The notes below the pieces were generated by a model that did not search any database, was not told the DNA's origin, and saw only the letters and a program-made list of their open reading frames with translations. DNA of 64,000 nucleotides, taken from positions 5,276 through 69,275 of the IMG/VR virus record IMGVR_UViG_3300030109_001309. One strand, written 5' to 3'. This DNA is from a virus. Every line of letters begins with the position of its first letter. Positions within the stretch are counted from its first letter, which is position 1. The translations under genes were made by a program, and so were the position numbers. This document shows, one piece after another, positions 15,380-30,431 of the stretch.

Positions 15380-15587
15380 TGTAGGAATCCTCTAGGTTTA
15401 TACCTAGATCAGATAAAATTTCATCGAATTTGTATAGACTATTATACACCTCTTCAAAGTAATTGTCAAGAATATCTTCTGCTGATATTTCTAATCTCTC
15501 GATAATCTCTGCACCTGTATATCTGTCAGCGATGAGCAACTTTAGCTCGTTTGGTTCGACCCTTAGTCCGTCTACCATGTGTGCCAT
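15339..15587 (-). CDS. Acidic hypothetical protein
   Basis: DRYTGAEIIERLEISAEDI shared with 56946..57191. Confidence 0.65.
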   Translation of the reverse strand: MAHMVDGLRVEPNELKLLIADRYTGAEIIERLEISAEDILDNYFEEVYNSLYKFDEILSDLGINLEDSYNETEEEYTQWSGS

Positions 15588-18193: not shown

Positions 18194-18222
18194 AGTATAA
18201 GGGATTAAAATTATGTTGTCAA
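18194..18222 (-). promoter_or_regulatory. Sigma70-type promoter for ssb
   Basis: TTGACA-17 bp-TATACT on minus strand; identical boxes at 59717..59745. Confidence 0.8.
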
Positions 18223-25522: not shown

Positions 25523-25550
25523 GTGACACATTGTAAGAACTTGCAAGGTC
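25523..25550. repeat. 28-bp inverted repeat, arm downstream of the 173-aa ORF
   Basis: GTGACACATTGTAAGAACTTGCAAGGTC matches the reverse complement of 26125..26152 at 25/28. Confidence 0.9.
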
Positions 25551-25575
25551 AATGGTTTTTGAAAAAAGAAACGCT

Positions 25576-26097
25576 CTATGCGTTTAGTGTTACTTCTGGA
25601 GCTTTCGCATTTAATTGACGCTTCCAGTACTCCAGAGTCTCTCCAGCGGATGCGTCTTTGGCCTTACGCTTGCCAAACTTAGTAACAATCTTATGCAACT
25701 CTTTGTTAAGCATAGTTGCATCGTACTCAAGATCGTCTTGATCTTTACGAGCTACACCAATCCAGTAGTTTTCCATTGATGCTTCTTCTACGTTTGCACG
25801 ATCTGCTCGCTTGTTTTCTTCATCTCGTACAAATTTCTTTTGCTCACGATCATACACTTGGTCTGAATATGTTTCTACCCACACACGAAAGTAAGTAGCA
25901 CCCACACCAGCATCAATATGCCACGTTAAGGCTTGGTTAATTTTACTATGATCGCCACACTTGGCATAGTGAGCAAGAGCATACAAAGCTACGTTCCACA
26001 AGTTACGCTTCCCACTTTTAAATTGGGACACGCCAGTTTTACCAGCTTTGACAAATTGCTCATCGTTTTTAATTGCAAGTTTTAGTACTTTTGCCAT
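25576..26097 (-). CDS. Early protein of unknown function (173 aa)
   Basis: Long ORF with RBS AAGGA; ALAHYAKCGD segment; enclosed by inverted repeats. Confidence 0.8.
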   Translation of the reverse strand: MAKVLKLAIKNDEQFVKAGKTGVSQFKSGKRNLWNVALYALAHYAKCGDHSKINQALTWHIDAGVGATYFRVWVETYSDQVYDREQKKFVRDEENKRADRANVEEASMENYWIGVARKDQDDLEYDATMLNKELHKIVTKFGKRKAKDASAGETLEYWKRQLNAKAPEVTLNA

Positions 26098-26124
26098 GAT
26101 AGTCTATCCTTCTCGTAGTAGATA

Positions 26125-26152
26125 GACCTTACAAGCTCTTACAATATGTCAC
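26125..26152. repeat. 28-bp inverted repeat, arm upstream of the 173-aa ORF
   Basis: GACCTTACAAGCTCTTACAATATGTCAC; partner of 25523..25550. Confidence 0.9.
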
Positions 26153-26452
26153 GCATAGTCAGTCTAGCTGTAGTGTTTGGTTTAACCTTGAAAAGTATAT
26201 TGCCATCGCTTTTGCCCTACGTAAACGCTAGGGATAAAACAGCCAGCATACAATCAAACGGTCCACTCGCAATTGACTTTGTATCGGTTCAACGACTTTG
26301 GCTTGGTCCAGGCACAAGTGTTGCTAGTACTCGCACCAGACTACCATCATTTTATCAGGATTTACCGTACCATTTCAGGCACGCACCTAACTATGCGATC
26401 TTGAATTGGGTTAGAATTTAACCCGCAAAACAGACTATTTCTAATCTGTTTT
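26152..26452 (-). ncRNA. Putative large structured RNA
   Basis: 11-bp closing helix 26397-26387/26162-26152, several internal helices, GAAA-capped 11-bp hairpin 26427..26452; G-U wobbles favour the minus strand. Confidence 0.65.
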
Positions 26453-26457
26453 AAATG

Positions 26458-26670
26458 TTAAATCCATTTACCGTTATTTTTGATCCTGCGGTCATGTCTC
26501 CAATTCCAAGACCAGTCAGGCCTAGATTTTCCACTTGGAAACAAATTCTCAAAATTTCCTTTAGTTAAGGAACGCTCACCTATTACCGCCCTAGCTCTGA
26601 TACCTTGGGCATATGCCAGCAAATCCCTTTGCTGTTTAGCTAACCGTTCCCTTTTACCTAGTCTAGCCAT
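26458..26670 (-). CDS. First early gene, basic hypothetical protein
   Basis: RBS GGAGG; 70 aa. Confidence 0.65.
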   Translation of the reverse strand: MARLGKRERLAKQQRDLLAYAQGIRARAVIGERSLTKGNFENLFPSGKSRPDWSWNWRHDRRIKNNGKWI

Positions 26671-26710
26671 AGAGGCCTCCCATGTAAAAAGTTAATCTAT
26701 AAAATAGGAT

Positions 26711-26725
26711 TTAATATTGAGTTAA
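26711..26725. promoter_or_regulatory. CtrA-like box
   Basis: TTAA-TATTGAG-TTAA (TTAA-N7-TTAA); could be chance in AT-rich DNA. Confidence 0.3.
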
Positions 26726-26751
26726 TCAATCACCTATATTTGATGATTATG

Positions 26752-26780
26752 AGACTATAGGAGTTTGATATTGTTGTCTA
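26752..26780 (-). promoter_or_regulatory. Candidate early promoter with UP-like A/T tract
   Basis: TAGACA-17 bp-TAGTCT on minus strand, with A/T tracts upstream. Confidence 0.45.
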
Positions 26781-26853
26781 CAAAAAAAATAATTATTTTT
26801 ATTCTTCAATGTTTTCAATGGGTTATAAAGAATATTAGAACAATTCTAAAAAG

Positions 26854-26862
26854 TTATCCACA
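26854..26862 (+). promoter_or_regulatory. DnaA box
   Basis: Perfect TTATCCACA in the main non-coding region. Confidence 0.5.
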
Positions 26863-26892
26863 GGCAAAAACAATAAAAAAAATAATATGGAG

Positions 26893-26949
26893 TCGGGTAA
26901 ATAGACTATCATTAAATAAATATAATCTATTATTAATCGGGTAAATAGA
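26893..26949. repeat. 13-bp direct repeat TCGGGTAAATAGA, two copies
   Basis: Copies at 26893..26905 and 26937..26949. Confidence 0.8.
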
Positions 26950-26992
26950 ATAGATCAATGTAATGATAGTTAAAAACTATATAATCGATATA

Positions 26993-27005
26993 TATCAATA
27001 GATTA
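26993..27005 (+). promoter_or_regulatory. IHF-like site
   Basis: TATCAA-TAGA-TTA fits WATCAA-N4-TTR; one-mismatch versions near 26813 and 27388. Confidence 0.4.
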
Positions 27006-27083
27006 AATGAATGTAGTAATAGCTTAAACCTATCAAGATCCCGAACAATTAAAATGAAATAGATAATATATTTTTTGCTTGAC

Positions 27084-27167
27084 TGTGACATTTATGCAAC
27101 AGCCAGGCAGTGTGACATTTATGCAACAGTGGTATTTATGCAACAGTACTGTGACATTTATGCAACA
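27084..27167. repeat. Four copies of the 18-bp TGTGACATTTATGCAACA
   Basis: Exact at 27084, 27111 and 27150; degenerate at 27128. Confidence 0.92.
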
Positions 27168-27175
27168 ATATATTT

Positions 27176-27190
27176 GTTCACGTTTTGTTC
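27176..27190 (+). promoter_or_regulatory. Alphaproteobacterial-type LexA (SOS) box
   Basis: GTTC-ACGTTTT-GTTC fits GTTC-N7-GTTC. Confidence 0.6.
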
Positions 27191-27275
27191 TTCTAGGGCC
27201 ATAATGGGGGTTTCAATGCTGTGGTGCTTTTTTCACACACCCTAAAAATTACTCAGAGAAATTACACAATAGTTC

Positions 27276-27304
27276 TTGACAAGCTACACAGACCGGGCTA
27301 TTAT
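27276..27304 (+). promoter_or_regulatory. Sigma70-type promoter
   Basis: TTGACA-17 bp-TATTAT. Confidence 0.65.
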
Positions 27305-27433
27305 ATATTTATATAGATACATTACTTATAATAATTATAATTATAATTTTCTTTATAGTACTTACAGTAATATAATTAATATAAGTATTTCAATAACTTA
27401 GGGTTTCGCAGCATTTTTAATTTTTTTGGTATA

Positions 27434-27462
27434 TTGACTTTATAATTCCTTTGTGTTATAAT
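27434..27462 (+). promoter_or_regulatory. Sigma70-type promoter with extended -10
   Basis: TTGACT-17 bp-TATAAT with TG; ends 8 nt before ATG 27471. Confidence 0.7.
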
Positions 27463-27470
27463 TAGTCATC

Positions 27471-28675: not shown

Positions 28676-28881
28676 TGGCTAAAAAAGAAAGTTTAAATAA
28701 ATGGTTTTCCCGAAACAAAGGAAAAGGTTGGATAGATTGTAAAACAGGTAAACCTTGTGGACGTAAATCAGCTAAGAACTCTAAACGCCCATACCCTGCT
28801 TGCAGACCTACCAAAGCTCAATGCAACTCAGCAGCTAAAAAGAAAAAAGGTCCAAGTAGAGTTAGTTGGAAAAAGAAATAA
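28675..28881 (+). CDS. Small basic Cys-containing protein, 68 aa
   Basis: WIDCKTGKPCGR...YPACRP; TAATG coupling to TerL. Confidence 0.75.
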   Translation: MAKKESLNKWFSRNKGKGWIDCKTGKPCGRKSAKNSKRPYPACRPTKAQCNSAAKKKKGPSRVSWKKK

Positions 28882-30431
28882 TGCAGCCTACCAAAGAAGA
28901 AATTAAACTTGCCGCTGAACGCAGCTTAATATCTTTTATTCGTCTTATTGCTCCTCAAACTGTACTAGGCCAGGTACACGAAGAGCTTTGCCAATGGTGG
29001 ACAAGGCAAGATAAAAAACAATACCAACTTACTTTACTACCCAGGGATCATCAAAAGTCCAGGATGGTTGCTTACAAAGTTGCTTGGTATCTTACAAACT
29101 ACCCAGATCATCGTATTCTTTATATTTCTTCTACAGCTAACTTAGCTGAAAAACAATTAAAGTTTATTAAAGATATTTTTACATCTGAAATATATAGACG
29201 TTACTGGCCTAACATGGTTAATAAAGAAGAAGCTAAAAGAGAAAAGTGGACTAACTCAGAAATATCTTTAGACCATGAACTTAGAAAAAAAGAGGGTGTC
29301 CGTGATCCGTCTGTTTTTACTGCCGGTCTTACTACTAGTATTACTGGCTTACACTGTGACGTTGCCGTTATGGATGATGTGGTCGTATATGAAAACGCCT
29401 ACACCAATGAAGGAAGAAACAAAGTAAAGTCTCAGTATTCTTTGTTGTCATCTATTGAAGGTGCAGAAGCACAAGAATGGGTAGTAGGAACTCGTTATCA
29501 TCCTAAAGATTTGTATAATGATTTAACCGAAATGGAATGTGAAATCTACAATGAAACAGGAGAAGTATTAGGATACGAACCTTTATATGAAAAGTTTGAA
29601 AGACAAGTTGAAAGTTTAGGAGATGGTACAGGAGAGTTTTGCTGGCCTAGACAACAAAGATCAGACGGTAGATGGTTTGGGTTTGACCGTACAATCCTAT
29701 CTCAAAAACGAGGAAAGTATTTAGATAGAACACAGTTTTATGCTCAGTACTATAACAATCCTAATAACCCAGAAGGTTCTGGAATTAACCCAGATAAATT
29801 TCAATACTACGATAAAAAGTTCTTGACACGTAGCGGTGGTGTATGGTATCATAAGTCAGAACGATTAAATGTTTTTGCATCTATTGACTTTGCTTATAGT
29901 TTAAGTAAGAGAGCCGATAGTACTGCTATTGTTGTTATAGGTGTTGATAGTTCTAACAGTTATTATATTTTAGATATAATTAGATTTAAAACAGAAAAGA
30001 TTGTAGACTACTACAACGAAATTTTAGATGCTCACACTAAATGGGATTTTAGAAAAATACGAGCTGAAGTAACAGCAGCACAAAAAGCAATTGTACAAGA
30101 ACTTAAATATTCTTATATTAAACAAAATGGTTTAGCTTTAAGTATTGATGAACACTCTCCTAATAGACACCAAGGTTCTAAAGAAGAAAGAATACGTGCA
30201 ATACTAGAACCTCGCTATGACAACTTATCTATTTGGCATTACTACGGTGGAAACTGTCAAATACTAGAAGATGAGTTAATGTCAGAAAACCCACCTCACG
30301 ATGATGTTAAAGATGCTCTCGCAGCAGTTATAGAAATTGCAATACCTCCTTCACAGGGAATGAAAAATAAACATAACAATAATGTTGTCCCTATTTTTAA
30401 TTCTCGGTTTGGTGGCGTAGCTTACGGTTAA
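28881..30431 (+). CDS. terL: Terminase large subunit
   Basis: Walker A-like PRDHQKS, TGLHCDVAVMDD, GTRY, nuclease DFA and HDDVKDA. Confidence 0.92.
   Translation: MQPTKEEIKLAAERSLISFIRLIAPQTVLGQVHEELCQWWTRQDKKQYQLTLLPRDHQKSRMVAYKVAWYLTNYPDHRILYISSTANLAEKQLKFIKDIFTSEIYRRYWPNMVNKEEAKREKWTNSEISLDHELRKKEGVRDPSVFTAGLTTSITGLHCDVAVMDDVVVYENAYTNEGRNKVKSQYSLLSSIEGAEAQEWVVGTRYHPKDLYNDLTEMECEIYNETGEVLGYEPLYEKFERQVESLGDGTGEFCWPRQQRSDGRWFGFDRTILSQKRGKYLDRTQFYAQYYNNPNNPEGSGINPDKFQYYDKKFLTRSGGVWYHKSERLNVFASIDFAYSLSKRADSTAIVVIGVDSSNSYYILDIIRFKTEKIVDYYNEILDAHTKWDFRKIRAEVTAAQKAIVQELKYSYIKQNGLALSIDEHSPNRHQGSKEERIRAILEPRYDNLSIWHYYGGNCQILEDELMSENPPHDDVKDALAAVIEIAIPPSQGMKNKHNNNVVPIFNSRFGGVAYG

Follow-up and report, generated by a model that had tools for sequence, protein, structure and literature searches.

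Does the spacer between the first two genes of the minus-strand block of an uncultured marine podophage encode a folded RNA, and what might such an RNA do there? The locus lies in a 69,275-base IMG/VR virus record (IMGVR_UViG_3300030109_001309), of which we analysed bases 5276–69275; this 64,000-nucleotide (nt) stretch is called the window, and positions below follow its numbering. An original prediction, made from the letters of the window, held that the minus strand at 26152–26452 forms a large, extensively paired RNA of no recognised family in the early transcript, probably working with the adjacent gene for a protein of 173 amino acids (aa). Our answer is that the RNA is very probably genuine, that is, a conserved, strand-specific structured RNA that matches no catalogued family. 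Judged from sequence comparison, it appears to be the middle of a three-part module that heads the minus-strand block in a clade of uncultured marine podophages, with a small basic open reading frame (ORF) before it and the 173-aa gene after it.

We folded both strands of the locus with RNAfold and compared the energies with those of dinucleotide shuffles. Over 26460–26100, the minus strand reaches −103.3 kcal/mol (z −3.03; 2 of 100 shuffles as good), while the plus strand reaches −78.1 kcal/mol (z −0.31; 34 of 100 shuffles as good). The two hairpins and the 246-nt domain closed by an 11-base-pair (bp) helix, as originally drawn, are all present on the minus strand, and the minimum-free-energy (MFE) structure of the region contains both hairpins (HP1 and HP2), the closing helix (P1), a 6-bp hairpin at 26383–26366 and a terminal hairpin at 26233–26215. 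When the 246-nt core is folded alone, the minus strand gives z −1.93 (9 of 300 shuffles as good) and the plus strand z 0.03 (147 of 300). The strand asymmetry, in which apparent mismatches read as G-U on the minus strand and as A-C on the plus strand, is real, and, as had been claimed, the minus strand inside 26152–26452 contains no ORF of 30 aa or more. The features are collected in Table 1; a 10-nt spacer separates HP2 from the domain, and 54 nt that include the ribosome-site hairpin separate the domain from the 173-aa ORF.

Table 1. Positions of the RNA, its neighbour genes and the associated pairings in the window
Feature	Position	Strand	Description
Small basic ORF, 70 aa	26458–26670	−	Opens the minus-strand block; precedes the RNA in all types
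Hairpin HP1	26427–26452	−	11 bp, 4-nt loop; a few bases past the small-ORF stop codon; in the MFE structure
Hairpin HP2	26408–26424	−	6 bp, 5-nt loop; 1–2 nt after HP1
Large RNA domain	26152–26397	−	246 nt; helix P1 closes both ends
P1, 5′ arm	26387–26397	−	11 nt; leads into conserved GGUG; three compensatory changes relative to L002
Hairpin P2a	26366–26383	−	6 bp, 6-nt loop; within short helix P2; in the MFE structure
Arm P3	26299–26346	−	Helix in two parts; bulges of 1 nt and 3 nt; 9-nt loop
Arm P6	26202–26247	−	Asymmetric internal loop with conserved CGAUG on its 3′ side; encloses hairpin P5a (26215–26233)
P1, 3′ arm	26152–26162	−	11 nt; last base doubles as first base of the long-range duplex arm
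Long-range duplex, 5′ arm	26125–26152	−	Together with the 3′ arm encloses the 173-aa gene
Ribosome-site hairpin of the 173-aa gene	26101–26128	−	5′ arm shares 4 nt with the duplex arm
173-aa gene	25576–26097	−	Always the next gene after the RNA; inside the long-range duplex
Terminator-like hairpin and T run	25569–25585	−	Overlaps the 173-aa stop codon; inside the enclosed loop, before the 3′ arm
Long-range duplex, 3′ arm	25523–25553	−	The next small ORF has its ribosome site after this arm

Inside the domain, the helices proposed earlier fared unevenly. Several of them, including 26383–26366 and 26233–26215, are in the MFE structure, but a 6-bp hairpin with a CGAG loop and a 7-bp pairing near 26320/26275 are absent from it, and both compete with a helix that is conserved in the relatives described below. 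The 5-bp long-range pairing near 26344/26172 also competes with a conserved helix, and it has a possible counterpart, seen by eye only, in the closest relative. Arm P6 is less certain than the others because in the predicted structure its 5′ strand pairs instead with 26164–26171. Past P2a comes a conserved single strand, rich in A, whose last bases are CC. In both the window and its closest relative, several strands have two possible partners that change in step; the bases at the inner end of P1, for example, can also lengthen P2. With so few sequences, these alternative interior pairings serve as leads. No pseudoknot between the conserved loops and single strands was consistent across the relatives when these were read by eye.

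Relatives of the locus were reached through the 173-aa protein, which has one relative at 70% identity (P0002) in a collection of 5.8 billion sequences and six further relatives, with E up to 1e-10, among 1.84 billion representatives. Contigs were recovered from viral and metagenome contig collections with alignments of the 173-aa relatives. Once same-contig duplicates had been removed, seven types were left, all metagenomic contigs of uncultured marine phages: (1) the window and L012, which are 99.9% identical over 1587 nt; (2) L002, the closest relative; (3) L015 and L018, together with L014 and L016, which hold the 3′ part only; (4) L004 and L005; (5) L006 and L017; (6) L008; and (7) L030. 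Two further contigs, L009 and L010, end too early and were left unjudged. Scans of the viral contigs with the single protein and with a two-sequence alignment gave no relatives, nor did a scan of genome contigs with the 173-aa alignment. A DNA pattern taken from the 5′ part of the domain matched only an already known contig, and a second DNA pattern matched seven loci, two of them known and five unrelated and mostly coding.

The gene order is the same in all seven types, with a small basic ORF, then 350–445 nt that hold no sense-strand ORF, and then a member of the 173-aa family. The association with the 173-aa gene is therefore as originally proposed, since the RNA adjoins that gene in 7 of 7 lineages; a point beyond the earlier view is that the small basic ORF upstream is just as constant a partner, and in these lineages the RNA is never seen apart from both neighbour genes. 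Across lineages the 173-aa homologues are 33–70% identical or detectable by profile only. In L008, the downstream protein of 185 aa is related at profile level only (hhalign probability 56%, E 1e-4, 102 columns).

When the spacer of each relative was folded by itself, the same succession was found: a hairpin right after the stop codon, a second short hairpin 1–2 nt further on, and a large domain tied by a P1-type helix. The counterpart of HP1 occurs at the same place in every relative with a differing upper stem, and HP2 is present in all of them with compensatory changes. The domain measures 226–286 nt in the eight sequences for which its length was taken, and the helices that close it in the relatives are 9–11 bp long. 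P2a is found in four types, including the window, and is missing as a clean gap in two, and the 9-nt loop of P3 is similar in sequence across five types. Along with this hairpin loop, the recurring single-stranded motifs are GGUG after the closing helix, the A-rich strand ending in CC that closes P2, an AAUGA-like stretch, and, in an asymmetric internal loop, a CGAUG on its 3′ side. A MAFFT alignment of eight cores has 14 invariant columns of 320; its 5′ third and last five columns are aligned, while the interior is not alignable across all types. Two Tara contigs, L014 (1–225) and L016 (1–237), do not have two adjacent inner hairpins that are present in L015 (2150–2435), which suggests that this inner arm is variable and apparently dispensable.

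In 6 of 6 types tested, the MFE structure contains a closing helix of 9–13 bp that ends at the conserved GGUG; the same event arose in 8, 5, 15, 9, 13 and 11 of 150 shuffles for the six types. The whole spacers of six types fold with z −2.3 to −4.7. L008 is less clear: RNAfold pairs the 5′ strand of its closing helix with the region of the start codon, and reading by eye shows a further possible partner, of 8 bp, immediately ahead of the duplex arm.

The comparison least prone to bias was a blind transfer, in which the structure predicted for the window was mapped on L002 through a structure-blind MAFFT alignment. The two RNA regions differ at 129 of 273 aligned sites (~47%), and the 173-aa genes at 214 of 516, so the sequence drifts while the helices stay. 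Of the 101 transferred pairs, 72 are kept, compared with 31–43% when the 3′ partner is slid by 1–3 positions, and pairing survives in 20 of the 27 pairs that differ at both bases. The reciprocal transfer of the L002 structure to the window keeps 80 of 117 pairs, including 22 of the 33 that changed on both sides. RNAalifold on these two sequences gives 80 pairs, of which 27 are compensatory (four in HP1, two in HP2 and three in the closing helix). We also curated by hand a table of seven helices in up to eight sequences, with 38 pair columns, 31 of them changed on both sides. All 268 of its 268 cells pair, compared with 183 ± 6 when partners are shuffled (maximum 205; none of 2000 trials reached the observed value), and 23 cells become A-C when the table is read as the other strand.

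Variation over shorter distances was also tallied. Substitutions within types number 49, of which 27 fall at positions unpaired in the predicted structure (35–39% of positions are unpaired); 20 pairs are hit, and 16 of these still pair. Among 21 sequencing runs listed, none was of RNA. Among the listed natural variants from four DNA runs, eight lie within 26152–26452, all of them outside the conserved helices, with six unpaired in the predicted structure and two in a weak, non-conserved helix; this distribution is suggestive only. The strand-specific folding, the transfer and the A-C cells on the other strand agree with the earlier argument from G-U pairs, and as sequence comparisons they support selection at the RNA level, on the minus strand.

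Does the RNA belong to a family that is already known? Rfam 15 gave no match at the gathering threshold over the whole window, and ARAGORN found no tRNA or tmRNA there, in agreement with the earlier claim of no recognised family. With permissive filters over 25900–26900, Rfam returned seven rows of 11–18 bits against thresholds of 40–100 (E 1.8–8.8), none of which covers the domain. In 50,697 deposited phage records there was no match for the region by blastn or for the 173-aa and 70-aa proteins by tblastn. Several identities were considered and rejected. A group I or group II intron does not fit because in every relative the ORFs on either side start and stop as genes of their own, and no intron model matched; a retron or other reverse-transcriptase RNA was set aside since Pfam scans of 26 window ORFs found no reverse transcriptase; and a known riboswitch class was rejected on the Rfam result and the 14 invariant columns of 320. 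HP1 is not listed as an intrinsic terminator in terminator scans, and no clear U run lies 3′ of it in the relatives read.

A plus-strand ORF of 91 aa lies opposite the RNA, and its conservation at the protein level would have spoken against an RNA. The product compared with that of the equivalent frame in L002 gives a BLASTP E of 1.8, it has no Pfam or PHROG match, and the differences by codon position are flat (47/92, 44/90 and 38/91), so it was rejected as a gene. Four of five types have an unusually long, noncoding antisense frame across the RNA (window 26146–26421, plus strand; L002 2927–3223, minus strand; L015; and L004), with stop-to-stop lengths of 99, 99, 81 and 71 aa, and the frame is closed in L006 and L017 (34 and 45 aa). 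These frames are probably a composition effect of the structured sense strand.

A catalogue drawn from IMG/VR uses the same contig source and the same kind of covariation evidence in intergenic regions; it comprises 8,495 candidate structured RNAs with reported lengths of 29–151 nt (PMC10690425). By those lengths the candidates are shorter than the 246-nt domain, so the domain as a whole is not among them, and single hairpins of it may be. A full-text search for structured RNAs in marine phages brought up general catalogues and no description of this element, and a second one, for early phage mRNA with RNase III and pairing over long distances, brought up nothing on such a module.

The domain is followed by a second conserved pairing. 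An inverted repeat of 31 nt, with arms at 25523–25553 and 26122–26152, is 87% complementary as DNA, the arms lying 568 nt apart, and as RNA it forms an uninterrupted run of about 28 pairs. A comparable duplex encloses the 173-aa family gene in 7 of 7 types, with unrelated sequences, and in the window and L002 the mismatches seen at the DNA level are G-U on the sense strand when read by eye. A stem of the RNase III type would span roughly two turns or more and covary; the present duplex has ~26–28 bp and recurs in all the types in different sequence. Its 5′ arm begins at the last base of P1 in the window and 2–14 nt after the closing helix elsewhere. In five types, the last 4–6 nt of this arm belong at the same time to a local hairpin, of which they form the 5′ arm and which covers the ribosome site or the start codon of the 173-aa family gene. 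Because these 4–6 nt are shared, the long-range duplex and the ribosome-site hairpin are mutually exclusive, and the duplex can form only once the whole 173-aa gene has been transcribed. The terminator-like hairpin of Table 1 is a feature of the window only, as no counterpart was seen downstream of the 173-aa gene in relatives.

Both neighbour genes behave as protein-coding genes. Compared with L002, the 70-aa ORF differs at 22, 15 and 42 of 69 first, second and third codon positions and the 173-aa gene at 52, 54 and 108 of 172, a third-position excess in each case. The small ORF has homologues at the same place in the relatives, and its most conserved part is the arginine-rich N terminus, which carries the motif R-x-G-K-R-E-R. 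The 70-aa protein matched nothing in Pfam, PHROG, the sequences of PDB (even at E 10) or the ESM Atlas. The 173-aa protein belongs to no Pfam or PHROG family. Its AlphaFold2 (AF2) model, with a predicted local distance difference test (pLDDT) score of 80, retrieved nothing from PDB with Foldseek at E 0.001 or better, and a wide VIA-align search gave generic helical matches, the best with a Z of 5.6. The ESM Atlas clusters nearest to the 173-aa protein are unnamed and mainly viral (the three shown have 50–61 members), no common Pfam family occurs in any of the 30 nearest, and a DUF3102 cluster appears with a score of 0.82 that amounts to a lead only. The 173-aa family may be wider in phages than the HMMER searches show.

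The position of the module in the genome bears on when it would be expressed. The ORF map of the window suggests two related, non-identical podophage genomes of ~42 kb each in tandem: ORFs of 742, 1557 and 899 aa from 957 parallel ORFs of 736, 1535 and 979 aa from 42830, and on the minus strand a series of 565, 636 and 552 aa parallels one of 563, 617 and 543 aa. Assembly may have joined two strains into a chimera, or the tandem may be a true heteroconcatemer; the second copy stops short of its own RNA locus. The first genome has a plus-strand structural block with a terminase (28866–30431) and a portal-like protein, and a minus-strand block with a C5 methylase, a primase-helicase, a family A DNA polymerase (PolA), a PD-(D/E)XK nuclease, endonuclease I, ribonucleotide reductase, a MazG-like protein and ThyX. 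The replication genes are similar to those of SIO1-type roseophages and of pelagiphages; PolA is 38–39% identical to those of the pelagiphages HTVC103P/104P and of SIO1-type roseophages, and no RNA polymerase gene was found in the Pfam scans of 26 window ORFs.

The RNA locus heads this minus-strand block of replication genes, just inside an AT-rich divergent region (26700–27470). Judged by gene order, the transcript bearing the RNA would be early, the first made in infection, and the block is presumably read by the host polymerase from promoters in 26700–27100; promoter-like matches near there are weak only. The divergent region also holds, at 27082–27167, four direct copies of a 20-nt repeat that are 85–100% identical and spaced by 27, 17 and 22 nt, and these may be an operator or an iteron array. 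Within the minus-strand block, the minus strand has a perfect (12/12) and a near-perfect (11/12) match to the sigma-70 consensus promoter at 15441–15469 and 18194–18222, so the block may consist of several transcription units and not of one long early operon.

What, then, might the RNA do? Our preferred reading, which we hold tentatively and at somewhat less than even confidence, is that the module works as a cis-encoded platform on which folding, processing and protein binding are coupled, so as to set the first step of expression. The domain would fold independently on the nascent first transcript. Once the polymerase has passed the 173-aa gene, the long-range duplex would form beside P1, and its formation would free the ribosome site of that gene. 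The duplex may at the same time be a double-stranded target for host RNase III, whose cut would separate the upstream RNA from the 173-aa mRNA; such cleavage is proposed on the model of early T7 RNA, the leader of lambda N and the processing stems of rRNA. The domain itself would be a binding platform for a protein of the module, the small arginine-rich protein and/or the 173-aa protein, which would set the timing or the level of expression.

Several points weigh against this scheme. An operator of 250 nt would be unusually large for simple autoregulation, and Pfam, PHROG, PDB, Foldseek, VIA-align and the ESM Atlas showed no known RNA-binding fold or family in either protein of the module. The folding energy of the core as a single sequence (just z −1.9) is moderate evidence and insufficient for the claim by itself. 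The family is rare, and the covariation comes from a small comparative set of seven types and about ten distinct sequences, among which the interior helices do not align across all types. The full pairing of the curated table is partly by construction, as the table was built with the structure in mind. Finally, with two possible partners for several interior strands, the model of the interior is provisional.

The large size and the rapid drift of sequence around kept helices would suit a scaffold more than a small operator, and this leads to the alternative that the domain is a stable noncoding RNA acting in trans. On this account, which we consider unlikely but worth serious attention, the RNA would be freed from the first transcript, with its 3′ end made by cleavage of the duplex and its 5′ end near the two hairpins, and it would act on a host target, one example being a decoy role towards a host protein or defence system. 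A long closing helix joins its two ends, as in many stable RNAs, it adjoins a duplex of ~28 bp that is a potential target for a double-strand nuclease, and by position it would be first made in infection. However, its constant company of two genes in seven lineages fits action in cis or a ribonucleoprotein (RNP) at least equally well, and scans detected no promoter or terminator of its own. A bolder version, to which we give a little less credence again, is that the domain represents a new autonomous class of phage RNA that is excised by a host double-strand RNase and acts, alone or with the small protein, on a core host machine, meaning RNA polymerase, the ribosome or a defence system. If true, the module would be a protein-light takeover device in phages that have no RNA polymerase of their own.

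Processive antitermination is improbable, though parts of the locus recall it. Here either the RNA itself, in the manner of put, or the RNA with the small arginine-rich protein, in the manner of N and nut, would allow readthrough into the replication block. None of the phage ORFs that were scanned encodes an RNA polymerase, two adjacent hairpins follow an ORF whose best-conserved part is arginine-rich, and in the window a terminator-like hairpin comes right after the 173-aa gene. But the loops of both hairpins differ between types, a conserved box-like single strand is lacking in front of them, searches with the small protein reached no family and, even at E 10, no solved chain, and the terminator is unseen in the relatives. 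Terminator-like sites are not enriched in the block either (11 compared with 8.6 expected), and the strong internal promoter-like sites at 15469–15441 and 18222–18194 reduce the need for readthrough.

We regard a riboswitch or ligand-sensing leader that controls translation of the 173-aa gene as very unlikely. The element does belong to the untranslated 5′ leader of a gene with a hairpin at its ribosome site, short single-stranded motifs are conserved at its junctions, and some of its strands have alternative partners that change together between the window and other types. Yet no known class was matched in Rfam, so few conserved nucleotides are unlike a ligand pocket, and the competitor of the ribosome-site hairpin is the long-range duplex and not the large domain. 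We think it equally hard to credit that the RNA is self-cleaving or otherwise catalytic and processes the early transcript. Large, elaborate RNAs with few conserved bases are sometimes ribozymes, and processing is plausible at this location, but Rfam matched no ribozyme family and the neighbouring ORFs are separate genes with their own starts, hence there is no intron to splice.

A trace less probable still is a signal at the DNA level, single- or double-stranded, such as a replication or priming site. G-T pairs are tolerated as well in folded single-stranded DNA of the same strand, and the AT-rich 20-nt repeats, a possible origin or operator, lie ~700 nt upstream; against this, the element sits between two co-oriented genes within a transcription unit, and the long-range duplex and the ribosome-site hairpin make sense in mRNA only. 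That there is no feature at all, merely chance folding of a spacer or a 91-aa gene on the plus strand, we dismiss almost entirely, for although the core alone has a modest z and three other types also have long antisense frames, the antisense products of the window and L002 are dissimilar, the 91-aa product is without family, the differences between the two frames are flat over codon positions whereas both real neighbour genes show a third-position excess, and the structure is conserved in seven lineages, two contigs of which close the frame.

To our knowledge, structured RNAs of more than 200 nt with a conserved architecture are rare. Such large structured RNAs have repeatedly proved to be ribozymes, RNP scaffolds or unusual regulators. 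The present one heads a presumed early transcript, in the company of two co-conserved proteins and of a gene-enclosing duplex that competes with a ribosome-site hairpin. If it is a timing or takeover device, it would show how marine phages that have no RNA polymerase of their own organise the first minutes of infection; if it is merely an elaborate leader, it is still a clean new RNA family for Rfam.

How does the module compare with known systems? The lambda N leader contains nutL and an RNase III-sensitive stem, the processing of which changes translation. It shares with the present locus, whose transcript is presumed to be early, a structured RNA in the first early transcript, a small arginine-rich protein and a double-stranded segment by a ribosome site. 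Here, however, the order is reversed, with the small ORF preceding the RNA, the duplex encloses a whole gene, and a multi-branched domain of ~250 nt stands in place of the short boxA/boxB and one stem. The N terminus of the small protein is arginine-rich and conserved; the hairpin loops are not conserved, and the protein has no similarity to N in Pfam and PDB sequence searches. In phage HK022, the put RNAs are two adjacent stem-loops that act on RNA polymerase in cis, and any likeness to HP1 and HP2 would lie in the adjacency of two hairpins.

The RNase III sites of T7 early mRNA are local hairpins between genes, and the stems of rRNA precursors enclose 16S and 23S rRNA. The duplex of our phage lies in a presumably early polycistronic RNA of a T7-like podovirus gene set, and it resembles the rRNA stems in joining both sides of a functional unit and being conserved by covariation. 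Unlike in T7, the arms lie 568 nt apart around a protein gene, the large upstream domain has no T7 counterpart, and cleavage is a prediction.

In the icaR mRNA, pairing of the ends reportedly hides the ribosome site; here it is a local hairpin that hides the site, and since the long-range pairing competes with this hairpin, an effect of opposite sign is predicted. Pairing between the 5′ and 3′ untranslated regions of the icaR mRNA is reported to control translation in Staphylococcus aureus (PMC3868564), and the likeness is in mRNA-end pairing that involves the ribosome-site region and, as a prediction here, RNase III. The icaR system has nothing like the large upstream domain.

Large structured RNAs of phages and prophages are also known in GOLLD and ROOL, which are in Rfam, and phi29 has a packaging RNA. 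The present RNA is like these in being phage-borne and several hundred nucleotides long, with many helices, few conserved bases and a function that is obscure or unusual. It differs from GOLLD and ROOL in that it does not match their Rfam models, is much smaller, lies inside an mRNA between two genes and belongs to one clade of marine podophages. Structured elements beside a double-strand processing site in early phage transcripts are known as a general kind; what is new is the family itself, its size and the arrangement in which a duplex encloses a gene.

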